From Deltaproteobacteria bacterium (GTDB taxonomy: Bacteria; Desulfobacterota; Syntrophobacteria; BM002), in assembly GCA_020353155.1 (NCBI GenBank), contig CP070689.1:1038302-1102301 (forward strand): a DNA stretch of 64,000 nt, read 5' to 3'. The position numbers and the translations under genes are program-made. The notes beneath the pieces were generated by a model. It was not told the DNA's origin and ran no database searches. It saw nothing but the letters and a program-made list of their open reading frames with translations. Every line of letters starts with the position of its first letter. Position 1 is the first letter of the stretch. Shown piece by piece: positions 39,140-57,038 of the stretch.

Positions 39140-39146
39140 AAGAGTA

Positions 39147-39295
39147 GTTCAAAGTCTCAAGTTCTAGGTTACAAGTTTTCTTAACCCTCCAAAGTTGAAG
39201 ATCAAACTGGTATTGGTCAGATAGACCTGGTGATGAAATTCTGTAGCTGTGCACTGTAATTTTGAACGTTGAACTTTGAACTTGGAACTTGAACC
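39147..39295. repeat. word-array palindrome (CAAGTTC / GAACTTG type) abutting the next start codon
   Basis: GTTCAAAGTCTCAAGTTCTAGGTTACAAGTT pairs with TTGAACGTTGAACTTTGAACTTGGAACTTGAACC. Confidence 0.75.
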
Positions 39296-40426: not shown

Positions 40427-40494
40427 GAGATCAGATATCAGATGTCTGAAGTCAGGGGTAGAGCTGATCTCTGATCTCCGACTTCTGACCTCTG
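40427..40494 (+). repeat. W2 dispersed hairpin element (CAGAGGT family)
   Basis: GAGATCAGATATCAGATGTCTGAAGTCAGG...AGCTGATCTCTGATCTCCGACTTCTGACCTCTG. Its core is shared with 30260-30320 and, inverted, with 63555-63661. Confidence 0.8.
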
Positions 40495-40553
40495 TGATGG
40501 ACGACTTGACCAGCGGTTAGACGCAGAGATTTAAGGTTTTTGAAGAAAGGAGA

Positions 40554-41156: not shown

Positions 41157-41297
41157 GAAAGTGCTCAACCGAGCGGACATTTTGCTTACTCTGTTTTCTA
41201 AGCGAAGGTTGGGGGCATAGATCCCGCCTTGGCAACAAAAGAGGTCCAACTACAGGAGTTTGGTTGCCTTAATCAATCGCCGATTAGAAGGAAGCGG

Positions 41298-42473
41298 ATG
41301 AAGATTGTCCACTACTGTCAACATGTCCTGGGAATCGGCCACTATGTCCGTAGCTTAGAGATTGCTCGAGCTCTTCACCGTCACAAGCTTGTTCTGGTGA
41401 CCGGTGGCCCACCTGTGGAGGTTCAGTTGCCACCTCATGTAAGCGAATACAGGCTGCCGGGATTGCAGATGGATGGAACATTCACAGTTGTTTCCCCAAC
41501 CGATAAAGCCCGCGCCCTGGATGAGGTGAAGGAGGAGCGAAAGATACTTCTCTATTCACTATTTGAAAAAACCGCACCTGAGCTTTTTCTGATTGAGCTC
41601 TACCCCTTCGGGCGTAGTAGTTTTGGCTTTGAGATAGAGCCTGTATTGGAATCAGTTCACCGAGGCGATTTACCGCCGACCAAGATAATCTGCAGCCTGC
41701 GTGATATTCTGGTGGAAAAGAAAAATCAGGAAACTTACGAACAAAGGGTTTTGCATCTCCTCAACAAATATTTTGATGGACTATTGGTGCATGCCGATGA
41801 ATCTCTGGTGACACTGGGCGAGACCTTCGAGAGCATAGATAAAATCAAAATTCCTTTGGCCTACACAGGCTTCGTCACTGCTCGGCCAATGGCAGGTGGA
41901 GGGCAAAAAGTCAGATCTCGCTTAGGCCTAAAAAGGAAAGAAGCCTTAATTGTGGCTAGTGCCGGGGGAGGAAGGGTAGGAGAGGATCTTCTCAGGGCAA
42001 CGGTTGAAGCCTATGCTCGCTTGGTGGGCGAGAGAAGACTACGCCTCTGCGTTTTCACCGGGCCCTTTATGGCAGAAACGAATTTCTCCGCCCTTTCAGA
42101 TCGGGTAGCCTCATTGCCTGGAGTGCAGTTGGAGCGATTCACTGCCGACTTCCTTTCATATTTGGCGGCGGCAGATCTTTCTATAAGTATGGCAGGTTAT
42201 AATACCTGTATGAATATTTTGGCAGCTGGGGTTCCTTCGCTGGTCTTTCCATTTGCTCAGAATAGGGAGCAGAGAATTAGGGCGGAAAGGCTCGCGGCCC
42301 TTGGTGGTTTGAAACTACTGAAGGAAGAGGATCTAGAACCTTCACGTTTAGCAACCCTCATGGCTAAAGTTCTCAATTCAGGAATAAAATCTGTCAAGGT
42401 TCCAATCAACTTGAATGGAGCTCGAGAGACAGCACGGTGGATTGAGCGCTGGCATGAAAGTACAGCCCCATGA
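41298..42473 (+). CDS. GT-B glycosyltransferase, COG4671/MurG-like paralog 3
   Basis: IVHYCQHVLGIGHYVRSLEIA, SAGGGRVG, AGYNT. Start moved to ATG 41298. Confidence 0.65.
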   Translation: MKIVHYCQHVLGIGHYVRSLEIARALHRHKLVLVTGGPPVEVQLPPHVSEYRLPGLQMDGTFTVVSPTDKARALDEVKEERKILLYSLFEKTAPELFLIELYPFGRSSFGFEIEPVLESVHRGDLPPTKIICSLRDILVEKKNQETYEQRVLHLLNKYFDGLLVHADESLVTLGETFESIDKIKIPLAYTGFVTARPMAGGGQKVRSRLGLKRKEALIVASAGGGRVGEDLLRATVEAYARLVGERRLRLCVFTGPFMAETNFSALSDRVASLPGVQLERFTADFLSYLAAADLSISMAGYNTCMNILAAGVPSLVFPFAQNREQRIRAERLAALGGLKLLKEEDLEPSRLATLMAKVLNSGIKSVKVPINLNGARETARWIERWHESTAP

Positions 42474-43294
42474 GCTGGAACGACAATATTCTCCCTTTAT
42501 GGCATAGTGTGCCTTCAGACATCGAGAAGCTTTTGCACAGATGCTTAGAGGAAGCTGCTGCCAAACTCCAAAATGGTAGAAGGGTGTTTGTCTTTTTCAG
42601 GGCAGATGACATTGGAGTGCCTGGAGAAGGCTTTGCCAAACTAGTCAGCCTTTTTCGTAGTCACCGAATTCCATTAACTCTCTCTGTAGTTCCAGCTTGG
42701 CTAACACGACCTCGCTGGCAGGAGTTGCTGACCATTTGTGGTAAAGACCACCGTTTGTGGTGTTGGACTCAGCATGGCTGGCGCCATTTGAATCACGAGC
42801 CTAGAGGAAAGAAGCTGGAGTTTGGCCCAAGTAGAAAAGCTGCCCAAAAGCGAGAGGATCTTTGGTTGGGTTTTCAGCGGCTGAATAAACTTATGGGTGA
42901 AGTTTTCGTTCCCGCCTTTACACCGCCCTGGAACCGATGCGACGAGGAAACACTCACTGCTCTCCAAGGGTTGGGTTACAAGGCCCTTTCCAGAAGCTTG
43001 GGTGTGCAACCACCTGCTCCAGCCTCGCTTCCTGAGTATCCTGTGAGTGTAGACCTTCACACTAGAAAAGAACAAGATGCTGCCTTGGGCTGGCAGAACC
43101 TTTTGAGAGAATTAAGTGCGAATCTGGCTAATGGCCTCTGTGGTATTATGCTTCACCATCAAAGAATGAATTATGCAGCTCTTGGTTTTTTGGATCTGCT
43201 TTTGGATAAGCTCAAGGGTTGGCAGTACGGACGACTTGTCCATCTTGGTACTCTGCTGGAGGAAGATGGTAAACTGCAGGAGGGAAGCTGTTGA
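42470..43294 (+). CDS. polysaccharide-deacetylase-like protein (tentative)
   Basis: FFRADDIG and QHGWRH resemble the NodB-type D-D and H-x-x-x-H motifs. ATGA start/stop overlap with the upstream GT. Confidence 0.4.
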   Translation: MSWNDNILPLWHSVPSDIEKLLHRCLEEAAAKLQNGRRVFVFFRADDIGVPGEGFAKLVSLFRSHRIPLTLSVVPAWLTRPRWQELLTICGKDHRLWCWTQHGWRHLNHEPRGKKLEFGPSRKAAQKREDLWLGFQRLNKLMGEVFVPAFTPPWNRCDEETLTALQGLGYKALSRSLGVQPPAPASLPEYPVSVDLHTRKEQDAALGWQNLLRELSANLANGLCGIMLHHQRMNYAALGFLDLLLDKLKGWQYGRLVHLGTLLEEDGKLQEGSC

Positions 43295-43377
43295 TTCGCT
43301 GTTTCCCCCTTAATCCATTTGTGTTATTTTGAACACCTTTGACTTATCATCTTGAGCAAAGCAGTGGCAAAGGGATC

Positions 43378-44061
43378 ATGTTAAATACATTGGCACATAA
43401 GAAAACAGATATCTCCAGGCAGGTGGTCCTTCCTTTTAAAAAATCTTTGGAAATAAGTTTTCAAAACATCCGGGTTAGGTTTTTTCGCTCTATGATAACT
43501 ACCATGAGTCTGGTGCTGGCTGTTTCATTTCTGAGTTTTGTGTGGGTTGGTACTGATGCAGCCAATGGACTGCTGGCGACGGGAGATCCTGACCTGCATC
43601 AGACTTTATTAAATGCTGGTTATGACCTTGAACCAGGAGCCACCTCCACTGGAAGCAGTGCCAAGGAACGATGGATAGTTATTCTCTCCCTGCTCGTTTG
43701 TGTAGTGGGGATAGTAAATGCCCAACTCATGGCAGTAACGGAACGCTTTCGTGAGATCGGCACTATAAAGTGCCTGGGAGCATTGGACAGTTTTGTCCTA
43801 CGACTTTTTGTTTTGGAAGCAGGGATGCAGGGGTTGGCAGGTGCTGGTCTTGGTTCCCTATTGGGAGGCGTGGCTGCTTTGTTTAGCGGCCTTATACGCT
43901 TCGGATTTTCGGCATGGCAGCATATCTCCTGGATGGCGGTGGTTCAGTCCATTGGTCTGGCTACATTGATAGGCTGCCTTCTGAGCCTGGTGGGCGTCCT
44001 TTATCCAGCCATGGTAGCCGCCCGAATGCAACCAGTGGAAGCCATGAGGGTGGAACAATAA
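43378..44061 (+). CDS. small FtsX-family (MacB/LolC-type) ABC permease with minimal outward loop
   Basis: 4 hydrophobic helices. The loop between TM1 and TM2 is only ~60 aa. ERFREIGTIKCLGA motif. C-terminal MQPVEAMR. Confidence 0.7.
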   Translation: MLNTLAHKKTDISRQVVLPFKKSLEISFQNIRVRFFRSMITTMSLVLAVSFLSFVWVGTDAANGLLATGDPDLHQTLLNAGYDLEPGATSTGSSAKERWIVILSLLVCVVGIVNAQLMAVTERFREIGTIKCLGALDSFVLRLFVLEAGMQGLAGAGLGSLLGGVAALFSGLIRFGFSAWQHISWMAVVQSIGLATLIGCLLSLVGVLYPAMVAARMQPVEAMRVEQ

Positions 44062-44183
44062 GCTGGTTGTCCGGTTATCCAGTTTAGCCGGTTATGCCAG
44101 AGATCCAATCGGACCGGCTAGCCTGATTAAACAGGCTAAACCTAGATAAGGGGAAAAAGGCCAAAATTTAAGGCACAAAAGCC

Positions 44184-44921
44184 ATGAACGAAATGCATAA
44201 CATAGTTCGAGTCTCAGGAGTTACCAAAGTCTTTAAACTGAAAAAGCACAGGGTGGAGGCGCTCCGCGGTGTTAATCTGGAAATTCGTTCCGGTGAGTAC
44301 CTTTCCATTATGGGGCCTTCGGGATCAGGTAAAAGCACACTTTTCAACATGATCGGAGGTCTGGACAAGCCCACCTCGGGGAAGGTTTTTATAGATGAAG
44401 TGGATATCGCCCAACTGGATGCCTACGAATTAGCCTGGCTACGCTGTCGAAAAATTGGCTACATTTTTCAAACATTTAATCTGATTCAGGTTATGACTGC
44501 GCTGGAAAACGTAACTCTGCCGATGATCTTTGGCGGAATGCATAATGATGGGGCGGTAGAAAAAGGTTTAGAGTTATTGGACCTAGTGGGCCTAGGAGAG
44601 CGCTTCAGACACAAACCCTCCGAGCTTTCCGGGGGTCAACAGCAGCGTGTAGCGATTGCCCGGGCCATGGCAAACGACCCAGCCATTATCCTGGCGGATG
44701 AGCCTACAGGAAATCTTGATTTGAGTACAGGCGAAGAGATTATCGAATTGCTTAAAAGGTTGAGTGAAGAGAAAGATGTTACCATCATTTCGGCCACCCA
44801 TGATTTCAAAATGCTCAGCGTCTCAGATCGGGTCGTCTGGATTCGAGATGGCCGGATAGATAAGGTCGAGGAGCGAGAACAGCTATCCATTTCGGTGGGA
44901 GAAATCGCCCACCGCCCTTAG
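44184..44921 (+). CDS. MacB/LolD/FtsE-type ABC ATPase
   Basis: [38 protein letters not shown]. Confidence 0.9.
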
Positions 44922-44984
44922 TTGAGGCAGGAAGCTTAGTCATATCTGACCATCATTTATAGACGGGAGCGATCCCGGATACCA

Positions 44985-47900
44985 ATGACTGTGATATGGG
45001 CATGTCATAGGAAAGAACTGGCTGAGAGAATTCGCAGGCCCAAGCTCCGGCGAATAATCAGGTCCTTGCTTTTGATTGGTGCACTCTTATGTTTTACCGT
45101 CCAATTTGCCCAGGCCGCTGATGTTAGTCAAGATCTGATTAGACAGTTGGTTGAAATAGAAGACCGGAGTACGGGGACTCCCGGCTGTAGTAAGGCTGGA
45201 GATCGGATTGAAAAGGCTTTCAAAACGCTGGGAATTAAACGTGTGGGTCGGCAACGCTTCCTCCTGCCGGTCACCCAATACCAGTCTGCTTATCTCACCA
45301 TAAAAGGTCAACGTACGGTCGTCAAACCACTTCGGCTCAATGCATTGAGCCCACAATCTACCCCGGCAGCGGGTATCCAAGGTCCACTCTATTATGTAGG
45401 AGCAGGAAAACTACAAGATTTCAACTCCATCAAGGTGGAAGGCAGCATCATCCTCATGGAGTTGGATTCTGGTAAGAATTGGCTCAATGCTCCCATGTTG
45501 GGGGCAAAGGGGCTGATCTACGTTGACCGGGGCCCCACTTCTAAATGGTTTTTTGAAGACAAGCGTGAGCTTACCTCCTTGGAATTCCCTCGTTTTTGGA
45601 TGCCACTTTCTCAAGCAAGATCATTATTTGGCTCTTTTGAAACCGCAGCGGATGGTTTGATTGCCTCACGCGTCTTGCTTAGCTCCAGTGGCGGATGGCG
45701 TCGAGTTCAGGGGGAAAACATCTACGCTCTCATCGAAGGTAAAAGTCCAGAGCTCAAGGAGCAGTTACTCGTGGTGGAAGCGTTTTATGACAGCACTGGA
45801 TTAATACCGGGGATGTCTCCTGGTGCCGACGAGGCCAGTAGTATCTTTTCCCTGCTGGATCTGGCCCGCCGTCTGCGTGATAACCCTCCAGGCAGATCGG
45901 TACTTCTATTAGCGACCAGCGGGCATGCCCAAACCCTTGCTGGGATGAGAGAGTTTATTTGGCCTCTTCGATCCAGAAGAAGAGAGCGAAAAAAGGTGGA
46001 GGGTGAACTTAAAACCCGCATCAAACGAGCCCAGGAGGCTCTGGAAGTCCTAAAGGCACCGCTGGTTTTTGAACAAACGAGTGAAGAGGCGGCTGAGCGC
46101 TTGCACGAGACCTTGGCAGAGCAGATCAAAAGCGAGGTGGATTCACTCAGTCAGAGGCTGATGCAGCTTCGCTTGGAGAAGAGTGGTGAGAAAAATCAAA
46201 GACTGATAGATGAGCTAGCCAGACGGCGGCTCCTTTTGCGACGGCTTGGCTGGCGTAGTTCTTACCAGGGTATTGAGGGCGAAGAGCTAAAGCTATTAGA
46301 GGCATTAGTCCCGGCGGCAATCGAGGAAAACCAGACCATTCTTGAGGATGGTCGGGAGCAAATGAAATGTTTGCGGAGCACGGATCGGTTGCGAAGCCTT
46401 ATGAGCAATTTTGACCTCACTGCCTTCATTTCGCTGCACCTTTCTAGCCATGGCGACGGAGTTGGCGCCTTTAATTACGGTTTTATGTACGATTTGAAAC
46501 CTCAAATTAATCGCACAGCTATCTACGCACCGATCAGCCGCATATTGCATAATCTGAGTAAAGAGGTTGAAAAGGAGCTGGGCCTTAGCGCGCTCTTTCA
46601 GGACACCTTGCAGCCTAGCCCATTGCGTCCTTGGCAGAGCTACCTTCCGGACCAACCTGCCCTTGGTGGTGAGGTAAGTGCATTGGCAGGATTTCTGGGA
46701 CTAACCTTGGCCACCCTGAACGATGCCCGTCCATTCTGGGGAACACCCTATGATAAGCCAGACAAGTTGAACCTACCTTACCTCGAGCAACAAAGTCGAC
46801 TGATCTCCGGTCTTATTGAGAAGCTAAGCCATGAACCGCAGCTGGGTTCTGACCGGCTTCCACTGACAGGCTTTTCATCCCTTGTCGGACGGGCAAACTT
46901 CATTCGCCAGGGGGAGCTTTTTCCTGACCAACCTGCCCCTGGAACTCTCGTTCTCGCCTATCAAGGACCGAGCCTCTTTTACACCATGGTAGACTCTGGC
47001 GGCTTGTTTCATGTTCGAGGAATTGCCGACCGCAAGCACACTATCCACAAAGCTATTCTGGAAGGTTTTCGCTTCAGCCAGAACACCGGGGAGATCATTT
47101 GGGCTATTGATAAGGCCACGACCGGCAAAGACGCCTACCGGATCAAGATGACACGAAGTTTTATGGAGACGGATCTGGTCATGTTTGCTTGTCGGACGAC
47201 CACCTTATTCGATCTCTTGGAGCCCCGGACTTTCAGCTATATGTCCAAGATTAAGCTGATAGACGGGAGAAGTGAGGCTAAACCACTGCGCTACTGGTGG
47301 AGCCGCATCGATACCCGCGCCTCCACTCTGGCCAACATATTCCTGGAGCCCATCACTCCATTCAAGTTGACTCTGTCGGATACAGTGCTCAAAAAGAAAC
47401 TTGTTTTGCTAAATTCCGAGGCCGGCAAACCAGAGGGCAGAGGATACCGGGTTGAGCAGTGGCCAATCATTCCAGCCACAGAGTACCGGGTTGCAAGGGA
47501 TATGTGGCACCTCCTGCTGCCACGTATAGTCAATTTGGAGAATCACGGTATCAGGAATGAACGTATTCGCGCCCATCAAAAGGAAGGCATTAAAGCTCTG
47601 GAACGAGCCGAGACAGCACTGGAAAATCGCCGTTACGATCGCTTTATGGAGGAGTCCAGGACCTCCTGGGCTTTGGCCAGCCGCATATATAATGACATAG
47701 AAAAAACACAGAAAGATGTTCTTTTCGGGGTGCTCTTCTACATAGCCCTTTTTGTTCCTTTTGCCTATTGCCTGGAACGTTTACTTTTTGCCTTGGTTGA
47801 TATCCACAAGAGAATCATTGCCTTCTTAGCAATTCTGGGCCTGATTATAACCGTGATTTACTTGGTTCATCCGGCATTTCGCCTAACCTACAGTCCTTTG

Positions 47901-49841
47901 GTGGTAATACTTGCCTTCTTTATCCTCGGTCTTTCGGTTCTGGTGGCCCTTATTATCATTGGTCGTTTCGAGCAAGAAATGGTAATGCTTCAGCAGCGGG
48001 CCCGTCAGATGAGAGGTTCAGAGATAACCCGGACCAAGGCATTCGTCGCTGCCTTCGTCTTGGGCGTCAGTAATTTGCGACGTCGGCCTATACGAACACT
48101 CCTCACATGCGTCACCCTGATTATACTCACTTTCACCATCATGAGTTTCACCACTGTTAAAAGTTTGCGTCATCGTGGTCGACTTCGCTTGCAGGATAAA
48201 TCTCCATATCAAGGTCTGCTTATGAAGATCCTCAATTGGGACAGCCTGCCGCCTGAAGCACTGGCTAGCACAGAGAACAAATTCAAAGACGAGGCCATTG
48301 TGGTGCCAAGAGTTTGGCTGGAGAATAAAGATCGCACTCAGGCGCCTGTGGTTCCCATTCGATTGGGGGGAAAAGAAATTTTGGCAAAAGGTCTGGTGGG
48401 TTTGAGTGCTCAGGAGCCGAGAGTCAGCAATCTTGGTGGCATAGTTAGTCGCGGACGCTGGTTTCGATCAGATGAGCGGCAGGTTGTGCTTCTTCCTGAG
48501 AGAGTTGCAAGAACCCTGGGAGTCTCACTGGGGGACGCTGAGAAGGCTAAGGTGTCAATTTGGGGTACTGATTTTCGAGTGGTGGGTTGTTTCAGGAGTG
48601 AAGGATTGGAGAGTCACCCAGACCTCGATGGTGAGCCCCTTACACCAGCTATATTTCCTAGTGAGGCGGTTATGGAGGTCACCGAGGTGGAGATGGAGGC
48701 CATAGAGGCCGGGGAGGATGTACAGGTCTTTCAAAGCCGCTATCAACATATTTCTGGCGACCTAATCGCAATAATGCCCTTTCAGACTCTCATGGCATTA
48801 GGGGGTAAGCTGAAGGCTCTCGCTATCCAACCGTACTCCCCTGAAGTTACCAGCGGACTTGCCAGAAATCTGGTTGACCGTTTCGGTTTGACCCTTTTTG
48901 CCGGTGAAGAAGAAGGCATCTTTATGTATTACGCCTCTGATGCTCTCAGCTACAGTGGGGTACCCAACATCCTCATCCCTTTATTGATATCCGTGCTCAT
49001 AGTGCTTAACACAATGATCGGCAGCGTCTATGAACGAAAGCGAGAGATTGCCGTTTATACCTCGGTAGGTTTAGCACCTTTTCATGTTTCTTTTCTTTTC
49101 ATCGCTGAAGCGCTGGCATTCGCGGTTCTAAGTGTGGTTTTGGGTTATCTACTGGCGCAGACAAGTGCTGGCCTTTTCGCTGGTACTTCGCTCTGGGGGG
49201 GAATTACTGTGAACTATTCCTCCCTGGCCGGAGTGGCAGCCATGATCCTAGTGATCCTAGTGGTGTTGGTGTCAGTAATTTATCCGTCTCGGGTGGCGGC
49301 CTCCATTGCCATCCCCGATGTAACTCGTGCTTGGACCCTACCAGAACCTAAGGGTGCCGAGATGAAACTAACCCTGCCATTCTTGATGAAATACAAGGAG
49401 CAACTGGGAATTGGCGGGTATCTGCGGGAATACTACTTTTCCCACAAAGATGTGTCACACGGCCTGTTCACCACCGATGACATCTCCTTGGAGTTTTACT
49501 GCCCCCACGACCAATTGTCAGGGCTCGCCGGTCCATATCACTGTGAAAAGGACTGCATCCAGGTCAAAAGCAGGGTCTGGCTTGCACCTTTTGATTTCGG
49601 GGTAAAGCAGTTCGTTCATTTAATTTTCTGCCCGTCAACAGAGTACCCTGAGAACTACCTGGAAATTCAAGTAACCTTGAAGCGTGAGGCTGGAGAGGCC
49701 AACTCCTGGAGACGAATCAACAAGGCCTTTTTAAACGATTTGAGAAAACAATTGCTAGTTTGGAGATCTCTCGACAACGAAGCCCAGGCCCATTATGCTA
49801 AATTGTTGGCAACTGAACAAGCTTATGAGGGGACCACTTAG
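44985..49841 (+). CDS. 1618-aa membrane protein: signal anchor + degenerate M28/PA peptidase-like ectodomain + 3 TM + complete FtsX permease module + C-terminal tail
   Basis: LLLIGALLCFTVQFAQA. PA-like GSIILMELDSGKNWLNAPMLGAKGLIYVD. M28-like VVEAFYDS..PGADEASSIFSLLDLARRL. FtsX VYERKREIAVYTSVGL with flanking TM helices. Confidence 0.75.
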   Translation: MTVIWACHRKELAERIRRPKLRRIIRSLLLIGALLCFTVQFAQAADVSQDLIRQLVEIEDRSTGTPGCSKAGDRIEKAFKTLGIKRVGRQRFLLPVTQYQSAYLTIKGQRTVVKPLRLNALSPQSTPAAGIQGPLYYVGAGKLQDFNSIKVEGSIILMELDSGKNWLNAPMLGAKGLIYVDRGPTSKWFFEDKRELTSLEFPRFWMPLSQARSLFGSFETAADGLIASRVLLSSSGGWRRVQGENIYALIEGKSPELKEQLLVVEAFYDSTGLIPGMSPGADEASSIFSLLDLARRLRDNPPGRSVLLLATSGHAQTLAGMREFIWPLRSRRRERKKVEGELKTRIKRAQEALEVLKAPLVFEQTSEEAAERLHETLAEQIKSEVDSLSQRLMQLRLEKSGEKNQRLIDELARRRLLLRRLGWRSSYQGIEGEELKLLEALVPAAIEENQTILEDGREQMKCLRSTDRLRSLMSNFDLTAFISLHLSSHGDGVGAFNYGFMYDLKPQINRTAIYAPISRILHNLSKEVEKELGLSALFQDTLQPSPLRPWQSYLPDQPALGGEVSALAGFLGLTLATLNDARPFWGTPYDKPDKLNLPYLEQQSRLISGLIEKLSHEPQLGSDRLPLTGFSSLVGRANFIRQGELFPDQPAPGTLVLAYQGPSLFYTMVDSGGLFHVRGIADRKHTIHKAILEGFRFSQNTGEIIWAIDKATTGKDAYRIKMTRSFMETDLVMFACRTTTLFDLLEPRTFSYMSKIKLIDGRSEAKPLRYWWSRIDTRASTLANIFLEPITPFKLTLSDTVLKKKLVLLNSEAGKPEGRGYRVEQWPIIPATEYRVARDMWHLLLPRIVNLENHGIRNERIRAHQKEGIKALERAETALENRRYDRFMEESRTSWALASRIYNDIEKTQKDVLFGVLFYIALFVPFAYCLERLLFALVDIHKRIIAFLAILGLIITVIYLVHPAFRLTYSPLVVILAFFILGLSVLVALIIIGRFEQEMVMLQQRARQMRGSEITRTKAFVAAFVLGVSNLRRRPIRTLLTCVTLIILTFTIMSFTTVKSLRHRGRLRLQDKSPYQGLLMKILNWDSLPPEALASTENKFKDEAIVVPRVWLENKDRTQAPVVPIRLGGKEILAKGLVGLSAQEPRVSNLGGIVSRGRWFRSDERQVVLLPERVARTLGVSLGDAEKAKVSIWGTDFRVVGCFRSEGLESHPDLDGEPLTPAIFPSEAVMEVTEVEMEAIEAGEDVQVFQSRYQHISGDLIAIMPFQTLMALGGKLKALAIQPYSPEVTSGLARNLVDRFGLTLFAGEEEGIFMYYASDALSYSGVPNILIPLLISVLIVLNTMIGSVYERKREIAVYTSVGLAPFHVSFLFIAEALAFAVLSVVLGYLLAQTSAGLFAGTSLWGGITVNYSSLAGVAAMILVILVVLVSVIYPSRVAASIAIPDVTRAWTLPEPKGAEMKLTLPFLMKYKEQLGIGGYLREYYFSHKDVSHGLFTTDDISLEFYCPHDQLSGLAGPYHCEKDCIQVKSRVWLAPFDFGVKQFVHLIFCPSTEYPENYLEIQVTLKREAGEANSWRRINKAFLNDLRKQLLVWRSLDNEAQAHYAKLLATEQAYEGTT

Positions 49842-49959
49842 CTGAAATGGACCTAGTATTAAGCGCTCAGTATTGCGCGCTTAGTCTGCTAATGTGGTCC
49901 ACAGGCACCCTCTCGTCTCTTTGTTGAAGTGATTATTGGCAGCAGAAACAGAAGTGAAA

Positions 49960-51939
49960 ATGGATCAGAACAGGGTAAGACTCCGGGCAATAATTCTAGG
50001 CGTTATACTAGGAATCATAATTTGCGCCCTTACCCCTTATAACAACACCTACCTTAATGCAACGCCTCTTGGAGGCGGACATTTTCCCTTGGCCGCATTT
50101 TTCGTCTTTTTCTGGCTTTCCATTGCTATCGCAGCTCTAGGGAGATTTCGCTTTTCTGCCAGCTGGTTGAGCGGTCGCGAACTCTTTGTCGTCTGGATTC
50201 TCATGGTCATAGCTTCAGGGATTGCCTACACTGGTCTGGTTCGCACTTTCTTCATTAACCTCACAGCTCCTTACCATTTTGCCAGCTTGGGCAATCGCTG
50301 GGGCGAAGTGATTCAGCCTATACTACCTCGGGCTTGGTATCCAGGGGATCCGAACTCCATTAGTCTCCTCTACAATGGATTAGAGGGAGGCAGTCAGATG
50401 GGCTGGTGGCAAGTTGTCCAGAAAATCCCCTGGGACTGCTGGCTGCCGCCCCTCCTGACCTGGGTGGGCTTTGTTCTCCTCTGCTATTGGGTGATGCTCT
50501 GTTTGGTTGATATTTTCAGTGAGCAGTGGATAGCCAACGAGAAGATGAATTTCCCACTCCTTCGTGTGCCCCAGCTCATGGAAGAGGCTCTGGCCGAAAA
50601 GAGGCTATTCCGCTTCCTTGCCAACCGTTTTCTGCTTGTGGGATTGCTGGCCACATTTACCCTCCATCTAATTAATGGACTCCATTTCTATTTCCCTTCA
50701 GTACCCCAGGTTCCGACGCTGATCCTTGCCGGTCCTTATTTCCCCAAACACGGTCTGTTTTCTGGTTTCCACAAGTTAAAAATCTTCATTTATCCAGCCT
50801 TTATCGGTTTTGCTTTTTTAACCTCTAGACAAATATCTTTCAGTTTCTGGTTTTTCTTTTTATTTGGCGGTCTATTGTATGGGTTGTTGAGCGTGTTAGG
50901 TTACAACATACCCGCTGCTGCCCTGGGTGTAACCTTTGGCCCCACCCTCTCGCGGCCAGAAGAAACGCAGGTAATCGGCGCTTACGCTGTCTTTTTTATC
51001 TTCATCCTCTGGTTGGCTCGCTATCACCTGCTGGATGTTACGAAGCAGTGCCTGTTTATTGGTAAAAGGAGAGAATCCGAGGTGGAATGGACTTCTCCGA
51101 GGATCTCCGGTTGGGGATTTTGGCTGGGAACGGCGATACTTATCTTTTGGTGTCTAAAGTTCGGCATGCCTCTGAAGGTGGCACTCCTCCTGCTAGGTGC
51201 CTTCTTATTTATCATGTTGGTGTCCAGCAAGGTGATCTGCCAAGGGGGTATTCCATATTTCACCCTTTCAGCCGCTCCCACAGATGGCCTACTTTCGTTT
51301 TTTGGCTCCCGTTTTTTTACCAATTTGGGACTGGCCATGGCAGCGGTTATGCAAAAGGTGATGTTTTTGGATTTACGGGAATCAATGATGCCTTCACTGA
51401 TTCATGGTGCCAAGGTAAGCGAAGGCGTCCGCTCCAGGCGGTTGATCTTCATGGGAATTATCCTAGCGGTTATTGCTGGGGTGGTGGTCTCCTTCGTGGC
51501 CATGCTCGCCCTTTGTCACAAGTACGGAATCCGCGGGCTGCAGATGGATTGGGCCACCCGTACCACACTTGGCGTATACGAGAATGTCCAGCGCCTCCTA
51601 GATGCTCCAGGTGAGCCGCGTCAGTGGGTGCTCATATTCTCAGCTGTGGGTGCACTTATTATGCTGGTTCTGGTCATTCTCTATCAACGCTTTTACTGGT
51701 GGCCAATACATCCTATAGGCTATCTGACGGCCTACAGTTCGGCAATGAGGATTCTATGGTTCAGCTTCATGGTGGGCTGGCTCTGTAACCATTTGAGTCT
51801 TAGATACGGAGGAGTATCGTTATTCAACAAGGTGCGATTTTTTTTCATTGGCTTGATTATTGGAGATTTTCTCATGGCAGGCTCCTGGGCTCTGGTAGGT
51901 CTCTTCACCTTTGCAAGCTACCAGGTCTTGCCCACGTAA
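49960..51939 (+). CDS. polytopic membrane protein of unknown family (~660 aa)
   Basis: Hydrophobic helices throughout (12 or more by eye). No motif I can assign. TTG 49936 is an alternative start. Confidence 0.7.
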   Translation: MDQNRVRLRAIILGVILGIIICALTPYNNTYLNATPLGGGHFPLAAFFVFFWLSIAIAALGRFRFSASWLSGRELFVVWILMVIASGIAYTGLVRTFFINLTAPYHFASLGNRWGEVIQPILPRAWYPGDPNSISLLYNGLEGGSQMGWWQVVQKIPWDCWLPPLLTWVGFVLLCYWVMLCLVDIFSEQWIANEKMNFPLLRVPQLMEEALAEKRLFRFLANRFLLVGLLATFTLHLINGLHFYFPSVPQVPTLILAGPYFPKHGLFSGFHKLKIFIYPAFIGFAFLTSRQISFSFWFFFLFGGLLYGLLSVLGYNIPAAALGVTFGPTLSRPEETQVIGAYAVFFIFILWLARYHLLDVTKQCLFIGKRRESEVEWTSPRISGWGFWLGTAILIFWCLKFGMPLKVALLLLGAFLFIMLVSSKVICQGGIPYFTLSAAPTDGLLSFFGSRFFTNLGLAMAAVMQKVMFLDLRESMMPSLIHGAKVSEGVRSRRLIFMGIILAVIAGVVVSFVAMLALCHKYGIRGLQMDWATRTTLGVYENVQRLLDAPGEPRQWVLIFSAVGALIMLVLVILYQRFYWWPIHPIGYLTAYSSAMRILWFSFMVGWLCNHLSLRYGGVSLFNKVRFFFIGLIIGDFLMAGSWALVGLFTFASYQVLPT

Positions 51940-51946
51940 ATAATTT

Positions 51947-52022
51947 GGAAGGCGGAACGGGGAATGCGGAGTGGGGAACTTGGAAGGTGTTAATTCCGAA
52001 TTCCGAATTCCGAGTTCCCACC
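51947..52022. repeat. word-array hairpin between the two polytopic genes
   Basis: GGAAGGCGGAACGGGGAATGCGGAGTGGGGAACTTGGAAGG pairs with AATTCCGAATTCCGAATTCCGAGTTCCCACC. Confidence 0.7.
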
Positions 52023-52029
52023 TGGAAAG

Positions 52030-53991
52030 ATGTACGACGATAAAGAGCTAAAAGAGTATCGAGACCTGTTAGAAGTGCCGGATCATTTTGAGGAAGGTTT
52101 CGATTGGAAAACAATTATTGGCGCCATTTTCATCGGTTTCCTCATGATGCCGGGCAGCATGTACCTGCAGCTTGTAATAGGTACAGGCATCGGCCCCGCG
52201 GCTCGTTGGGTGACCATAATTCTTTTTGCTGAACTGGCCAAAAGGTCCTACTCCGAACTAAAACAGCAGGAGATATTCCTCCTTTATTATATGGCGGGGG
52301 CTGCCCTGGCATCACCCTTTCAGGGACTGCTCTGGAACCAGTACCTGGTCCAGTCAGATGCAGCCAAAATGTTGGGACTCACCGAATTCATCCCTGCGTG
52401 GGTGGCACCAGCAGTAGGTTCTGATTCTCTCCTCGAACGCACCTTCTTTCACCGGGATTGGATGATCCCAATTTTACTTCTGGTTGGGTCACAGATTATT
52501 CAACGTATCGATCATTTTGGTCTTGGCTATGCTCTGTTCAGGATCACCTCCGATGTGGAAAAGCTTCCTTTCCCCATGGCGCCGGTGGGAGCCCTAGGGA
52601 CGATGGCCCTGGCCGAATCAACAGAAGATAAGCAAAAGAGTTGGAAATGGCGCGTTTTCTCCATCGGCGGGGTCATTGGTTTGGCCTTTGGCTCTCTATA
52701 TGTGCTTTTGCCTGCTGTTTCAGGCTTGCTATTGACGGAGCCAATCCGTCTTATTCCTATACCGTGGATTGACTTAACCCGCCATACTGAGGATGTATTG
52801 CCAGCTGTGGCCACGGGGTTACAGCTCGACCTAGGGCTCATATTCCTTGGCATGGTCTTGCCATTTTGGGCAGTAATGGGCGGCCTGGTGGGATTGTTAA
52901 TCACCGTAGGAGCCAACCCGGTTCTCTACAAACATGGCATACTCCACCGCTGGCGTCCGGGCATGGGGACGGTTGACACGGTTTTCGCCAACAATTTTGA
53001 TTTTTATATGAGTTTTGGTATTGGCCTTGGACTCGCTATTGGTCTTATAGGGGTGTGGTATGTCCTGCGCTCATTTTGGAATGGCGGTGGAGGTCAACGG
53101 GTTAGCTTTAAAGCACTCTTCAAGCCCCCAGCCGGAAGGGGTGATTTCAATTTTTGGATCTCCATAGGGATCTATGTTTTCTCTACTCTGGCCTATACGG
53201 GCCTATGTGTGTGGCTGGTTCCTAAATTTCCCTGGATCTTCTTTCTTGGCTACGGCTTCATCTATACTCCGGTTATCTCGTATATTACTGCCCGCATGGA
53301 GGGCATTGCCGGACAGTTCGTCAGTTTACCCCTGGTGAGAGAGGCGAGCTTCATTGCAGGGGCCAAATTCTTTGGCTACCAGGGAATTGAGATCTGGTAC
53401 GCTCCCATTCCCATTCACAACTACGGGGAGGCCACTGTCCAGTTTCGCAAGATAGAACTCACTGGAACAAGCATCAGGGGTATCATCAAGGCAGAGATTG
53501 TGGTATTTCCGGTTGTTATGGTGGCAAGCCTTCTCTTCTCTCAGTTTATCTGGCGTCTAGCGCCCATACCCTCCAGTAGCTATCCCTATGCCCAGGAGCT
53601 CTGGCATCTACAGGCTTTAAACACCTTGCTGATGCAAACTTCGACTTTGGAGGGAAATTCTCTTTTCTTCCAGGCGTTGAAGGCAAGTTACGTTTTGGGT
53701 GGCTTGGGCTTTGGCGTAGTGACCTATATCCTACTGAATATCTTGGGCTTACCTGTGCTGCTAGTGTACGGGGTGGTTCGTGGTTTGGGTCAATCTACTC
53801 CCCATAGCATGATCCTCGAGGTGGTGGGAGCTTTACTGGGTCGCTTCTTTTTCCTCAAGCGTTACGGCAAAATGTGGCGCCAGTATGCACCTGTACTACT
53901 GGCGGGATTTTCCTGTGGAATGGGTCTTACTGGTATGTTCGCCATGGGTGTCACCCTAATTCTAAAATCATTAAGTAAACTTGCTTACTAA
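52030..53991 (+). CDS. polytopic membrane protein of unknown family (653 aa)
   Basis: Hydrophobic helices throughout. No motif I can assign. Confidence 0.7.
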   Translation: MYDDKELKEYRDLLEVPDHFEEGFDWKTIIGAIFIGFLMMPGSMYLQLVIGTGIGPAARWVTIILFAELAKRSYSELKQQEIFLLYYMAGAALASPFQGLLWNQYLVQSDAAKMLGLTEFIPAWVAPAVGSDSLLERTFFHRDWMIPILLLVGSQIIQRIDHFGLGYALFRITSDVEKLPFPMAPVGALGTMALAESTEDKQKSWKWRVFSIGGVIGLAFGSLYVLLPAVSGLLLTEPIRLIPIPWIDLTRHTEDVLPAVATGLQLDLGLIFLGMVLPFWAVMGGLVGLLITVGANPVLYKHGILHRWRPGMGTVDTVFANNFDFYMSFGIGLGLAIGLIGVWYVLRSFWNGGGGQRVSFKALFKPPAGRGDFNFWISIGIYVFSTLAYTGLCVWLVPKFPWIFFLGYGFIYTPVISYITARMEGIAGQFVSLPLVREASFIAGAKFFGYQGIEIWYAPIPIHNYGEATVQFRKIELTGTSIRGIIKAEIVVFPVVMVASLLFSQFIWRLAPIPSSSYPYAQELWHLQALNTLLMQTSTLEGNSLFFQALKASYVLGGLGFGVVTYILLNILGLPVLLVYGVVRGLGQSTPHSMILEVVGALLGRFFFLKRYGKMWRQYAPVLLAGFSCGMGLTGMFAMGVTLILKSLSKLAY

Positions 53992-56101: not shown

Positions 56102-57010
56102 ATGGATAGCAGGAATTTGGAGTCATGGCAAACGGTGGCCTGGAACGGAATCAGTATGCGAGTGCCTTCGCAGTGGGAGGTAAGCTCTTTGACAAAATCT
56201 TACCTTCAGCTGGATGACGGCATAGGCCCCGTACTTGAGCTCAAGTGGCAGCAGGTGAGAGGTGTCTTTTCCCACCAAGATCATTTGAAGAAGCTGGCTC
56301 GTCATTCCAGATCTGTTCCTGAACTAAATTTTCAGCAAACTTCTCTGCCAGAGGAGTGGCATCAAGCTTTGCGTCATTTTGAGACTCAGTACTTTGAGTG
56401 GCAGAGTGGGGAAGTAGATGGGAAAGGGGTTGTTTTGTATTGTCCGGCGAGTAAGCAGGCCAGCCTGCTGCAATTTTATCAGCAGCGGGGTTTAAAGGGC
56501 TCTGAGGTGCAACTGGGCGTGTTGGACTCATTTCGGGATCAATGTGAACAAAACATGGTAAGATGGTCATTGTTTGGCCTGAATGCGCTAATGCCCAAAT
56601 CGTTTGAGTTGATACGATATCGTTTTGAGCCGGGCCGCTACCAACTAGAGTTTAAGGATCGTCAAGAGTGTGTTGAACTTAATCGCTGGGGTCCAGCTGA
56701 TTTGCTTCTGAGGAAGAGTGATCTTCGCCACTGGTTTGAAGAGAAGTGCAAGGAACTAGACTGGTGCAGGTCGGCAGGCATCCGAGAGCGTAATTATCAC
56801 GGCAGCCCTGCTCTTTATGGAAAAAGCCGAGGTTCGAATAGCCTCACAGTGAGGCTTTGGGCAAGGATATCAAGGAAATTACCCCACGTGTGGTTTCGCA
56901 TCTGGCACCTTTCTTCTCGAAACCAGATTCTGGGTGTGGCGGCACGTGGCTTGAAATCTTTGGATGAATACTTGCTTGAGGAAATCTGCAGAAACTATGA
57001 TATGGCCTAA
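56102..57010 (+). CDS. hypothetical protein (302 aa)
   Basis: Long clean ORF. No recognisable motif. Its 3' end overlaps the next gene. Confidence 0.55.
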   Translation: MDSRNLESWQTVAWNGISMRVPSQWEVSSLTKSYLQLDDGIGPVLELKWQQVRGVFSHQDHLKKLARHSRSVPELNFQQTSLPEEWHQALRHFETQYFEWQSGEVDGKGVVLYCPASKQASLLQFYQQRGLKGSEVQLGVLDSFRDQCEQNMVRWSLFGLNALMPKSFELIRYRFEPGRYQLEFKDRQECVELNRWGPADLLLRKSDLRHWFEEKCKELDWCRSAGIRERNYHGSPALYGKSRGSNSLTVRLWARISRKLPHVWFRIWHLSSRNQILGVAARGLKSLDEYLLEEICRNYDMA

Positions 57011-57038
57011 AAGAAAAAAGCTGCAGAAGAATCACCTT

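Follow-up and report, generated by a model that had tools for sequence, protein, structure and literature searches.

A widely conserved five-gene module of sulfate-reducing bacteria, a proposed membrane machine with FtsX-type ABC and predicted OPT-fold components

Type VII ABC systems, among them MacAB-TolC, LolCDE, FtsEX, YbbAP-TesA, BceAB, and DevBCA, share a four-helix FtsX module with an outward domain between the first and second transmembrane (TM) helices. Two different FtsX genes accompany a single ATPase gene in LolCDE, and large multi-TM FtsX subunits are represented by YbbP and BceB. Known transporters of the OPT/Yellow-Stripe (YSL) family (Pfam PF03169) are stand-alone secondary transporters; the barley protein HvYS1 (PDB 7wsr and 7wst) is a homodimer, for which an elevator-like transport model is discussed (PMC9691689). 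The locus described here recalls the type VII systems in each of these traits and in having an ATPase of the MacB/LolD clade, and additionally encodes two polytopic proteins with a predicted OPT/YSL fold. Its five genes lie in the same direction at positions 43378-53991, on the plus strand of the window, i.e., the 64,000-nucleotide stretch of deltaproteobacterial DNA that was analyzed, in the order small FtsX, MacB/LolD-type ATPase, 1618-aa FtsX giant, DUF6785/6784 protein, and P5. They are the central part of a proposed membrane machine that is conserved very widely among sulfate-reducing bacteria, with relatives in further phyla of bacteria and also in archaea. All five open reading frames listed in an initial annotation of the window were recovered at their positions, and our literature search, in keeping with that annotation, turned up no characterized system of this layout.

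The small FtsX-type permease (43378..44061, plus strand) exceeds the Pfam FtsX cut-off of 25.5 with 50 bits, and its TM2-TM4 match MacB, LolF, YtrF, and LolC in the PDB. Counted from a TTG codon, its reading frame would span 43339-44061; since alignments with homologues start only at residue 15-18, the ATG at 43378 is the better supported start, giving a protein of 227 aa. This length and the four TM segments agree with the initial annotation, but the outward loop between TM1 and TM2, put there at ~60 aa, measures only ~40 aa in the hydropathy scan and leaves no periplasmic domain. The adjoining 245-aa ATPase (44184..44921, plus strand) falls into the MacB/LolD/MJ0796 clade. Its motifs are all found (in stretches of 23 and 11 residues), with Walker A, signature, and Walker B readable; it matches Pfam ABC_tran (1e-35), and its top matches are LolD, DarD, MacB, and DevA in NCBIfam and MJ0796, MacB, and LolD in the PDB. 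Pfam, NCBIfam, profile, and PDB matches thus concur on FtsX and ATPase parts of the MacB/LolC type, as expected for the FtsX/MacB-type engine suggested earlier. The NCBIfam equivalog cut-offs for LolC/E, LolD, MacB, and FtsX were all missed by wide margins, the FtsX models giving 20-22 bits against cut-offs of 225-255.

The third gene (44985..49841, plus strand) encodes a giant FtsX subunit of 1618 aa, for which the hydropathy scan and Pfam bear out the previously sketched layout of anchor, large ectodomain, three TM helices, FtsX module, and tail. A signal peptide or anchor (aa 21-47, ending AQA|AD) is followed by an ectodomain of roughly 860 aa (about aa 48-910), three extra TM helices (aa 912-995; 47718..47969, plus strand), a complete FtsX/MacB-type module (aa 1035-1444; 48087..49316, plus strand) composed of TM1 (aa 1035-1061), an outward domain of ~260 aa, and three TM helices at aa 1320-1444, and a C-terminal tail of ~175 aa. 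Pfam matches comprise FtsX (aa 1331-1441) and a partial Peptidase_M28 (aa 245-340). Concern that the reading frame joins separate genes through a frameshift or assembly error is dispelled by full-length homologues in bacteria and archaea: the ~1580-1700-aa proteins of at least 120 clusters cover 96-100% of the giant in alignments. In profile comparisons the FtsX module matches MacB (with its periplasmic domain, 3ftj, among the hits) as well as YtrF, LolF, and LolC, and MacB_PCD matches were found in homologues. The region of the three extra TM helices and the FtsX module is also matched by the PADLOC profile 'CARF_m8--CARF_LolE_TM' (PDLC01991; E 4e-56), of which a sister model is named with a beta-galactosidase domain. 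In the bacterial-archaeal alignment, P925, F926, A927, E931, R932, H962, and P963 are invariant in the extra TM region, and the conserved cytoplasmic C-terminal domain (aa 1445-1618; 49317..49838, plus strand) has 16 invariant residues, including P1465, F1466, G1493, F1495, L1533-A1534-P1535, W1575, W1593, and R1594. The tail of an archaeal homologue aligns with positions 550-657 of the PADLOC profile, beyond the FtsX part (E 2e-6), and the tail of the window protein alone gave no match to this profile.

The N-terminal part of the ectodomain (aa about 48-345; 45126..46019, plus strand) combines PA-like and M28-like sequence. Its family profile matches PA-containing M28 aminopeptidases (2ek8, E 5e-21; YwaD) and likewise the transferrin receptor TfR (E 1e-8), nicastrin (6e-7), and nicalin. 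In the residue-level alignment with YwaD, FYDS stands in place of HxDS and SGHAQ in place of the Glu-Glu pair, and both substitutions recur in every one of the 21 inspected homologues as well as in the archaeal protein. Without the catalytic His or the Glu-Glu pair, the domain resembles the transferrin receptor and nicastrin rather than an enzyme, and the name 'M28 peptidase' is probably a misnomer. As judged from these residues and profiles, the ectodomain is receptor-like, as had been proposed for the large subunit, and very probably non-catalytic.

The two polytopic proteins were initially left without a family. We place both in distant, uncharacterized branches with the OPT/YSL fold, according to AlphaFold models and OPT matches within their families. 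Protein A (49936..51939, plus strand; 667 aa) consists of DUF6785 (E 7e-163) and DUF6784 (E 2e-34), and the only significant PDB fold matches of its AF2 model (pLDDT 70.6, pTM 0.76) are to barley YS1 (E 9e-7, TM-score 0.63/0.68). Protein B, or P5 (52030..53991, plus strand; 653 aa), the most conserved component, has no match of its own in Pfam or NCBIfam; its model (pLDDT 85, pTM 0.86) significantly matches YS1 only (E 5e-11, TM-score 0.65-0.72), and over both models YS1 is the sole PDB match, with TM-scores of 0.61-0.72. Neither window protein reaches Pfam OPT, but 19 of 44 aligned members of the P5 family do (best E 1e-17), as does, weakly, an archaeal homologue of protein A. The two families are themselves related (hhalign of protein A against P5, E 5e-4 over 571 columns). 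The branches are too remote to equate these proteins with a well-characterized transporter family, and they travel with the giant even in archaea. Given the homodimer and the elevator-like model of HvYS1 (PMC9691689), a heteromer of the two paralogous proteins is plausible.

Synteny identifies the five genes as one conserved unit, a point on which the initial annotation had left itself open to refutation. Among 55 informative Desulfobacterota species loci, i.e., those with at least 8.8 kb of upstream DNA, 50 show the colinear order small FtsX-ATPase-giant-DUF6785-P5. They span several orders, with lineages labelled Syntrophobacterales, Desulfobacterales, Desulfobulbaceae, Desulfovibrio, and Desulfarculaceae, and include cultured strains; stop and start codons within the module overlap or abut in Halodesulfovibrio. 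Identities of syntenic copies amount to 80-91% for P5 (80 species genomes), 72-92% for the ATPase (73% to the Poribacteria copy), and 46-79% each for the giant and the small FtsX, a pattern that fits a tightly constrained core. The giant and P5 also adjoin one another in distant lineages, where they are 0-18 nt apart or overlap, often through their stop and start codons, and in unassigned contigs and MAGs the giant adjoins P5 relatives of 30-50% identity. Gene orders are giant-P5-x302-PqqD-ATPase-Wza-Wzc in Poribacteria, 291-aa protein-PqqD-FtsX-ATPase-giant-P5 in Lentisphaerae, giant-P5-DUF6785 in Bathyarchaeia, and DUF6785-giant-P5 in Brockarchaeota, with no ATPase or small FtsX within reach on the archaeal contigs. 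No copy of P5 was found in 72,556 plasmid records. Three Desulfobacterales loci encode DUF6785-P5-x302-PqqD beside glycosyltransferase (GT)/deacetylase genes with no ABC genes nearby, and one locus (L030) has P5 without DUF6785; at the locus level, the ABC and OPT parts can thus occur apart.

The conserved unit exceeds the five genes originally delimited, as two proteins encoded at 56102-57431 belong to it as well. The cytoplasmic 302-aa protein x302 (56102..57010, plus strand) had no match in Pfam, NCBIfam, PADLOC, or PDB; its homologues follow P5 in ~42 of 58 Desulfobacterota loci, and the one in Poribacteria (HMM E 3e-39) is flanked by P5 and the ATPase. Overlapping its end is a PqqD-like protein of the peptide-chaperone/RRE type (56964..57431, plus strand; Pfam PqqD, 40 bits) with weak NCBIfam matches to lasso/PQQ PqqD models, which accompanies x302 in both Desulfobacterota and Poribacteria; the protein it adjoins in Lentisphaerae (291 aa) is not recognizably x302-like. 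Upstream on the same strand, Pfam and NCBIfam matches delineate a biosynthetic cluster (37886..43294) of two GT4 genes (37886-39139 and 39296-40426), a histidine phosphatase (40554-41156), a GT28_C/MurG-like GT (41229-42473), and a DUF2334 polysaccharide-deacetylase-like protein (42470-43294). The reported position of this cluster directly upstream of the module recurs in many lineages, with GT28-like and DUF2334 homologues directly preceding the small FtsX in 17 of the 30 loci whose DNA extends far enough, but not in all, as it is absent at some loci (L002) and in the archaeal contigs. Carbohydrate-related neighbors or fusions recur in independent lineages: Wza and Wzc lie downstream in Poribacteria, where the giant has a LysM match marked as faint by the tool, and a malectin-domain protein, DUF4185, and the beta-galactosidase domain in the name of the PADLOC sister model complete the list.

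From gene linkage and analogy we infer a physical complex, its heterodimeric motor, the direction of transport, and the cargo. Our preferred reading, at somewhat less than an even chance, is that the module is a type VII ABC mechanotransducer which is coupled with OPT-fold conduits and acts on a glycoconjugate or glycopeptide of the envelope. In the motor, a dimeric ATPase (245 aa) would sit on a TM pair, one half being the 227-aa FtsX and the other the FtsX module of the giant, and one or two OPT/Yellow-Stripe-fold permeases (DUF6785/6784, P5) would be coupled to it; since TM domains of type VII systems have no channel of their own, these permeases would supply the membrane path. ATP binding and hydrolysis would move the MacB-like outward domain together with the PA/M28-like ectodomain, and this movement may serve substrate capture, hand-on, or release at the outer face. 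At the inner face, delivery or sensing of the cargo would fall to the C-terminal domain of the giant, x302, and the PqqD-like protein. As cargo, the gene neighborhoods suggest a glycoconjugate of the envelope, which may be a glycosylated peptide, a glycolipid, or the precursor of a polysaccharide; in the window genome it would be made by the upstream GT4, GT28-like, phosphatase, and deacetylase-like genes.

The OPT, M28, and PqqD families all point to peptides over glycans, which suggests a case against the glycoconjugate reading. The ectodomain might instead bind, and in some lineages trim, extracellular or periplasmic peptides that the OPT-fold proteins import and the PqqD-like protein and x302 receive in the cytoplasm, with the ABC motor gating or resetting the receptor. 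OPT is a superfamily of oligopeptide and metal-chelate transporters, the ectodomain derives from PA-containing aminopeptidases, and PqqD domains are peptide chaperones; moreover, NCBI already names P5 homologues 'peptide transporter', PDZ or beta-propeller inserts as in some P5 relatives are typical ligand or peptide binders, and Bathyarchaeia and Desulfobacterota are among the carriers. We nevertheless regard peptide uptake as unlikely, because the M28 catalytic residues are lost in all homologues examined, the archaeal one included, the identity of P5 across the phylum is unusual for a nutrient scavenger, peptide-catabolic genes are not linked, and the recurring neighbors are carbohydrate and envelope genes. 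The upstream cluster could alternatively make an amino-sugar conjugate, i.e., a small glycoside or low-molecular-weight thiol-like metabolite, through its GT4 (MshA/BshA-like), histidine phosphatase, and deacetylase-like genes, which the OPT-fold proteins would export or recycle under regulation by the ABC part. Yeast OPT transporters move glutathione, and MshC of the mycothiol pathway is a CysRS paralogue. BshA and MshA are the closest NCBIfam models of the second GT4, below the curated cut-offs, and the phosphatase and deacetylase-like genes that come next parallel mycothiol steps; a thioredoxin gene adjoins the module, and a PALP-CysRS fusion is encoded elsewhere in the window. All GT matches, however, lie far below equivalog cut-offs, the CysRS-like gene is 30 kb away, the 180-kDa receptor-like FtsX subunit would be left unexplained, and archaea conserve the module without these GT genes, so that such a metabolite is an improbable cargo.

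In several type VII systems (FtsEX-EnvC/PcsB/RipC, YbbAP-TesA) the role is to regulate or retain an enzyme and not to transport, and the ABC part might likewise only signal to an extracytoplasmic partner, e.g., a cell-wall or envelope hydrolase, the OPT-like proteins being ordinary transporters that share the operon. The exo-muramidase NamZ is encoded nearby, an alanine racemase lies near one locus, and the faint LysM match of the Poribacteria giant would suit this role. Yet the linkage of giant and P5 persists, with overlapping genes, in archaea, which have no murein, the low scores of the NCBIfam FtsX models speak against it, and no hydrolase gene accompanies the module in a conserved manner; we give FtsEX-like regulation little credence. 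The PADLOC match, together with the archaeal tail alignment past the FtsX part, could indicate a defense-related membrane effector under nucleotide-signal control, with the tail of the giant as a CARF-like sensor of cyclic oligonucleotides. This we consider highly improbable, as the strong match covers the TM and FtsX region rather than a sensor domain and does not extend to the window tail, as the module is chromosomal, colinear, and near-universal in the phylum with one highly conserved subunit, unlike defense islands, and as the neighbors inspected include no CRISPR or cyclase gene.

Comparison with known systems delimits the envelope module on several sides. RiPP systems that combine a PqqD element with a MacB-type exporter, such as darobactin (DarBCD/DarE), share the proximity of a PqqD-like protein to a MacB-type ABC system, the DarD model gives 211 bits with the window ATPase, and in one lineage the GT cluster includes a SPASM-domain gene. 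In contrast to them, no conserved precursor-peptide ORF was found with the module in 93 loci, it has no conserved radical-SAM, cyclase, or protease partner, and it is near-universal and vertical rather than patchy. The PADLOC profile, presumably derived from the CARF survey of Makarova et al. 2020, resembles the giant as detailed above, whereas the genomic context in the window is housekeeping-like, and the profile name is silent on the M28-like ectodomain, the OPT-like partners, and PqqD. With the transferrin receptor, nicastrin, and nicalin, the giant has in common the loss of catalytic residues and a large lid or receptor domain on a polytopic membrane complex; unlike these, it is prokaryotic, carries an ABC permease module on the same polypeptide, and contains a coiled-coil-rich insert and ~400 more residues without assigned fold. 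The polytopic proteins, which share an E-(K/R)-x-x-F-P motif, match HvYS1 in their predicted fold but are ~12-13% identical to YS1, form a pair of divergent paralogues, have relatives with inserted beta-propeller or PDZ domains, and are encoded with an ABC motor. From type VII ABC systems, finally, the module differs in that no adaptor, be it outer-membrane or periplasmic, and no TolC or LolA-type partner is conserved with it, in that its small subunit has no outward domain, and in the PA/M28-like ectodomain, extra TM helices, and conserved cytoplasmic tail of its giant; OPT-fold proteins are obligatorily linked with it, a PqqD-like protein frequently so, and modules of its type are also present in archaea.

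The five plus-strand genes at 43378-53991 encode a small FtsX-type permease, an ABC ATPase (44184-44921), a giant FtsX subunit of 1618 aa (44985-49841), a 667-aa polytopic DUF6785 protein (49936-51939) and a second, 653-aa polytopic protein termed P5 (52030-53991). They form a module of defined composition whose proteins can be assigned to families and folds, whose giant subunit contains a dead peptidase site, and whose genes are linked exceptionally tightly and anciently. Scanning one genome from each GTDB species with a P5 alignment yielded at least 586 loci. The best 80 of these are labelled Desulfobacterota with few exceptions (Acidobacteriota, Gammaproteobacteria, Proteobacteria/Pseudomonadota), with labels of metagenome-assembled genomes taken as given in the records, and include cultured Desulfovibrio, Halodesulfovibrio, Pseudodesulfovibrio, Solidesulfovibrio, Desulfopila and Desulfogranum. 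The surroundings of P5 were retrieved and searched by tblastn with the window proteins. Conservation of the five genes across related genomes, which the initial annotation had put forward as a check, is evident: the order small FtsX-ATPase-giant-DUF6785-P5 is colinear in 50 of the 55 loci having at least 8.8 kb of upstream DNA, and one further locus is merely incomplete. These counts rule out chance adjacency. DUF6785 and P5 are kept without the ABC genes in L054, L058 and L059, in the last of which they adjoin glycosyltransferase and deacetylase-like genes, and P5 stands alone in L030.

The syntenic copies of P5 are 80-91% identical to the window protein, compared with 72-92% for the ATPase, 49-83% for the DUF6785 protein and 46-79% for both the small FtsX and the giant; P5 is slower-evolving than the ABC ATPase. 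In Halodesulfovibrio the module genes overlap or abut (3048/3048, 8024/8021, 9997/10001), and a search of 72,556 plasmid records with P5 found no copies. Some lineages carry additional genes. A SAM-dependent methyltransferase (Methyltransf_24/Methyltransf_3 type) lies within or just ahead of the module (L081:1430-2326, L005:7430-8074), in Halodesulfovibrio between small FtsX and ATPase. Desulfovibrio caledoniensis (L072) and Pseudodesulfovibrio karagichevae (L079) have an insert of about 1.6 kb separating DUF6785 from P5 (~8.3-10.0 kb), which in L072 contains a gene for an SBP_bac_3-type solute-binding protein.

The linkage extends beyond the phylum. All P5 relatives of 30-50% identity from other lineages have a giant-type FtsX gene directly upstream, with gaps of 0-18 nt or an overlap. 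A Poribacteria contig has the order giant (2335 aa; M28, MacB_PCD, FtsX), P5, homologues of two conserved accessory proteins (a 302-aa protein, x302, and a PqqD-like protein), ATPase (73% identical to the window ATPase), Wza and Wzc, and a Lentisphaerae contig has a 291-aa protein, PqqD, FtsX (492 aa), ATPase, giant and P5. The order is giant, P5 and DUF6785 in Bathyarchaeia and DUF6785, giant and P5 in Brockarchaeota. Giant and P5 are therefore the invariant pair, being adjacent in all these lineages, and DUF6785, small FtsX, and x302 with PqqD are frequent additions to it.

The small FtsX (Pfam FtsX PF02687, 50 bits versus a cut-off of 25.5; giant 40.1 bits) and the ATPase identify the motor as type VII. 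The open reading frame of the small FtsX begins at TTG 43339, but homologue alignments begin only at residue 15-18, so that translation likely starts at ATG 43378 and gives the 227-aa product of the initial annotation. That annotation was also correct in describing a four-TM permease, as four hydrophobic segments are present; the outward loop between TM1 and TM2 is ~40 aa by hydropathy scan and not ~60 aa, and the small FtsX has no inserted extracytoplasmic domain of the MacB_PCD or Porter/Sabre type. Intact Walker A, signature and Walker B motifs in the product of 44184-44921 agree with the proposed MacB/LolD-type ATPase. Top NCBIfam matches of the ATPase are LolD (227 bits), DarD, MacB (212) and DevA (204), and its closest solved relatives in a PDB sequence search are MJ0796 (E 4e-72), followed by MacB and LolD. 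PDB sequence matches of the FtsX parts are MacB, LolF, YtrF and LolC. NCBIfam equivalog cut-offs were missed by the small FtsX for lolCE (39 versus 362 bits) and MacB (50 versus 966) and by the ATPase for LolD (227 versus 308), and the giant had no NCBIfam match.

Pfam and hydropathy analyses agreed with the giant's previously proposed layout: a signal sequence that looks cleavable, an ectodomain of ~860 aa, three TM helices, an FtsX module (TM1, a ~260-aa outward domain and three TM helices) and a tail of ~175 aa (aa 1445-1618), which is predicted to be cytoplasmic from FtsX topology. The best 120 homologous protein clusters are all ~1300-1700 aa long and most span 96-100% of the query; such abundant full-length homologues rule out an assembly or frameshift artefact. 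The giant-family profile matches the MacB periplasmic domain 3ftj (E 9e-4); PF12704 (MacB_PCD) gave weak matches in giant homologues and none for the window giant itself. The ectodomain is related to M28 peptidases (PF04389, 30.1 bits versus a cut-off of 21.3), with a match that covers only profile positions 1-88 of 193. The giant-family profile matches PA-domain M28 aminopeptidases (2ek8, E 5e-21; YwaD, 2e-19) and also their non-catalytic relatives transferrin receptor, nicastrin and nicalin. Alignment with YwaD reveals that AHYDS is changed to AFYDS, replacing the zinc-ligand His by Phe, and GAEELG to SGHAQT, replacing the catalytic/zinc-ligand Glu-Glu pair by His-Ala. The His-to-Phe change is present in 20 of 21 giant sequences inspected, the remaining one having Ala. 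An archaeal giant retains the His (AHFDS) but not the Glu-Glu pair (SGHWQ), which is missing from every copy examined. Because the window giant has lost both the zinc-ligand His and the Glu-Glu pair, the label 'M28 family peptidase' in databases probably misstates the activity, and the domain resembles a receptor or lid. The three extra TM helices contain the invariant charged residues E931, R932 and H962, and 16 positions of the cytoplasmic tail are invariant across bacteria and archaea.

The two polytopic proteins, which the initial annotation could not assign to a family, can both be placed in the OPT superfamily by fold and transitive homology. The DUF6785 protein matches Pfam DUF6785 (543 bits, cut-off 25, E 7e-163) and DUF6784 (118 bits, cut-off 26.4, E 2e-34), two families for which we found no mention in the literature searched. 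P5 has no Pfam or NCBIfam match, carries conserved Pro/Trp-rich loops on its outer side and has relatives in 1015 clusters (search of 1.8 billion cluster representatives). Neither window protein matches Pfam OPT (PF03169) even at E 0.1, and PDB sequence searches with P5 and x302 found nothing. Pfam OPT is reached by 19 of the 44 aligned P5-family sequences (P5 plus 43 relatives, the weakest ~25-30% identical; best E 1.3e-17), by fused P5 relatives and, weakly, by the Lentisphaerae P5 and an archaeal DUF6785 protein. A confident AlphaFold2 model of P5 built on the 44-sequence alignment (pLDDT 85, pTM 0.86) retrieved as its only significant PDB matches two entries for barley Yellow Stripe 1 (HvYS1; E 5e-11, TM 0.65-0.72; next TM <0.15). 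The model of the DUF6785 protein, which is of moderate confidence (pLDDT 70.6, pTM 0.76), retrieved HvYS1 only (E 9e-7, TM 0.61-0.68; next matches TM <0.2). Direct BLASTP of P5 against the DUF6785 protein was not significant, and the end-to-end profile-profile alignment of the two families (571 columns, E 5e-4, probability 32%), which includes a shared E-(K/R)-x-x-F-P motif, is only suggestive; their relatedness was settled by fold instead. Models and family matches thus make P5 and the DUF6785 protein distant and uncharacterised branches of the OPT superfamily. HvYS1 is an OPT/YSL homodimer with a fold that has no other structural relatives and for which an elevator-like transport model is discussed (PMC9691689). 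By analogy with this homodimer, a heteromer of the P5 and DUF6785 paralogues is plausible. Several P5 relatives (P0242, P0245, P0247, P0250, P0264, P0265; 860-1083 aa) carry a large outer-loop insertion, namely beta-propellers (Reg_prop or WD40 repeats) near P5 residue 543 or, in P0250, a PDZ domain near residue 346, which hints that these OPT-fold proteins contact macromolecular ligands.

The accessories x302 (56102-57010) and PqqD (56964-57431; PF05402, 40.1 bits versus a cut-off of 23.4) were located by HMM downstream of P5 in ~42 of 58 informative Desulfobacterota loci. In the window, two genes on the minus strand (54215-55821) intervene between P5 and this pair: one for a Trx2-like thioredoxin of 195 aa whose N-terminus carries a Zn-ribbon, the other an unassigned ORF of 255 aa. 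Only the window's Syntrophobacterales-type lineage has this interruption, which also occurs in L001, L007 and L008. Many Desulfobacterales and Desulfobulbales-type loci encode, between P5 and x302, a conserved secreted protein of ~205 aa (L002:19432-20052 and its equivalents in at least 25 loci). It carries a signal peptide and the motifs GDPFH..WKWSF and NRISLILQHN, matches no Pfam family and lacks a homologue in the window, the minus-strand 255-aa ORF being unrelated to it. Immediately beyond the module PqqD in the Desulfobacterales loci L002, L003 and L005 is an ABC gene of 837-850 aa, accompanied by cNMP-binding, HATPase_c_2 (anti-sigma kinase) and STAS genes. The window has an 841-aa protein of the same architecture (ABC_membrane fused to two ABC_tran; 415-2940, plus strand, noted together with the ORFs up to ~4000) ~40 kb from the module. 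Reading the region as a RiPP cluster was rejected, since neither an adjacent precursor peptide gene nor a cognate modifying enzyme (radical SAM, cyclase) is conserved. No conserved precursor-like small ORF was detected in 93 loci, the conserved small ORFs being only STAS, PqqD itself, a CxxC zinc-ribbon family, a small coiled-coil membrane-protein family and out-of-frame artefacts. The zinc-ribbon and coiled-coil families occur in six loci each, well downstream, the latter in a few Desulfobulbales-type loci, and a SPASM-domain gene is present in one lineage only.

Upstream of the module, after a gap of 83 nt, are same-strand genes for two GT4 glycosyltransferases, a histidine phosphatase, a GT28_C/MurG-like glycosyltransferase and a DUF2334 polysaccharide-deacetylase-like protein. 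The initial description of the module as directly downstream of a glycosyltransferase/deacetylase cluster holds for the window and for 17 of 30 loci with enough DNA, which have GT28-like and DUF2334 homologues directly upstream and range from Syntrophobacterales to Desulfovibrio-type genomes, but the arrangement is not universal; one Desulfobacterales genome has a sigma-54 two-component system in their place. Carbohydrate-related features recur elsewhere, i.e., Wza and Wzc downstream and a faint LysM match on the giant in Poribacteria, a malectin-domain protein in the Lentisphaerae locus, DUF4185, and a PADLOC model named with a beta-galactosidase domain, which is a sister of model PDLC01991. 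Promoter and terminator scans gave no more than chance would, except for one good terminator after the first GT gene, and an Rfam scan of the window gave no matches. The sole convincing intrinsic-terminator-like hairpin of the region (37662-37683, plus strand; 9 bp stem and T-run) follows the first GT28-like gene, which suggests that this gene is transcribed apart from the remaining cluster.

Several other window genes were recorded. A homologue of the exo-beta-N-acetylmuramidase NamZ (34690-35862, minus strand) is divergent from the glycosyltransferase cluster. In an unusual 778-aa fusion (10210-12546, plus strand), residues 19-297 form a PLP-dependent PALP domain and residues 329-773 a class-I cysteinyl-tRNA-synthetase catalytic domain with DALR_2 and CysS_C; the fusion gene is preceded by another PALP enzyme (7238-8749) and followed by a GT28_C-like glycosyltransferase (13652-14908). 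Paralogues of cysteinyl-tRNA synthetase are Cys ligases in mycothiol synthesis. A Memo-AMMECR1 fusion (509 aa), followed by a radical SAM protein (389 aa; both 22300-25169, plus strand), makes up with it the known 'AmmeMemoRadiSam' trio, with two members fused here. The plus-strand gene at 30320-33217 encodes an MrfA-like repair helicase-nuclease of 965 aa, which combines DEAD/Helicase_C with an MrfA Zn-binding domain and, at the C-terminus, RNase_H_2.

We propose that the module proteins form one complex, in which an ATPase dimer would carry the small FtsX paired with the giant's FtsX module, in the manner of LolC and LolE. To our knowledge, type VII TM domains have no transmembrane path of their own, and the OPT-fold proteins may supply it. 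ATP-driven motion of the giant's outward domains would capture, pass on or release cargo, and the giant's tail, x302 and PqqD may work on the cytoplasmic side. An envelope glycoconjugate or glycopeptide is the favoured cargo, mainly because of the recurrent carbohydrate-related neighbours. Against this, the OPT, M28 and PqqD family affinities all point to peptides, and peptide uptake is a serious rival, although we consider it unlikely on balance. A small-glycoside or thiol transporter is a lesser rival, as is an FtsEX-like regulator with OPT-like neighbours that merely share its operon; the NCBIfam equivalog cut-offs of FtsX_Gneg and FtsE were missed by the small FtsX (22 versus 255 bits) and the ATPase (198 versus 265), respectively. 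A CARF-type signalling effector is likewise a lesser rival. The PADLOC model 'CARF_m8--CARF_LolE_TM' (PDLC01991) matches the window giant over the three TM helices and the FtsX region (E 4e-56, profile positions 13-577 of 810). The window tail alone had no match to this model, and the archaeal tail matches positions 550-657 (E 2e-6), extending the match to position 657.

We tentatively suggest a previously unrecognised class of envelope machine common to bacteria and archaea, in which OPT-fold proteins are firmly coupled to a type VII ABC mechanotransducer and serve as its transmembrane conduit. It would be the first ABC motor to drive or gate a secondary-transporter fold and, in Desulfobacterota, a near-universal housekeeping system for the export or assembly of a surface glycoconjugate or glycopeptide; this full proposal is possible rather than probable. 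There is a substantial chance that the module is a new class of machine. The tightness of the coupling is apparent from the P5 conservation across the phylum, overlapping genes and a linkage that reaches beyond Desulfobacterota into Poribacteria, Lentisphaerae, Bathyarchaeia and Brockarchaeota. We know of only one solved structure, and of very little prokaryotic biology, for the OPT superfamily. The module places two Pfam DUFs and the unmodelled P5 family (about a thousand 50%-identity clusters) in a definite setting and puts right the misleading database names 'M28 family peptidase' and 'peptide transporter'. What is apparently a core envelope function could be uncovered in cultured sulfate reducers amenable to genetics; cultured carriers include Halodesulfovibrio aestuarii DSM 17919 (NZ_CP192219.1, ~1.731-1.753 Mb), Desulfopila sp. 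IMCC35008 (NZ_CP050700.1, ~0.399-0.421 Mb) and Desulfovibrio caledoniensis lm2024 (CP195092.1).

The initial statement that no characterised system has this layout was upheld in the literature searched, which contained neither the combination of a type VII ABC motor, a pseudo-M28 receptor, two OPT-fold proteins and a PqqD-like protein nor the pairings of FtsX, M28 and Desulfovibrio or of OPT and FtsX; the module families are likewise absent from the D. vulgaris RB-TnSeq paper, supplementary data included. Type VII ABC systems are a small, well-studied set (Lol, MacAB, FtsEX, Bce, YbbAP), in which every additional kind of partner has brought to light another way to do work outside the cytoplasm. 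Compared with LolCDE, MacB and FtsEX, the module proteins miss the defining equivalog thresholds by wide margins. The parts of the module belong to known superfamilies, and what appears new against the literature searched is their combination, in which OPT-fold proteins would be a new type of partner for a type VII ABC motor.
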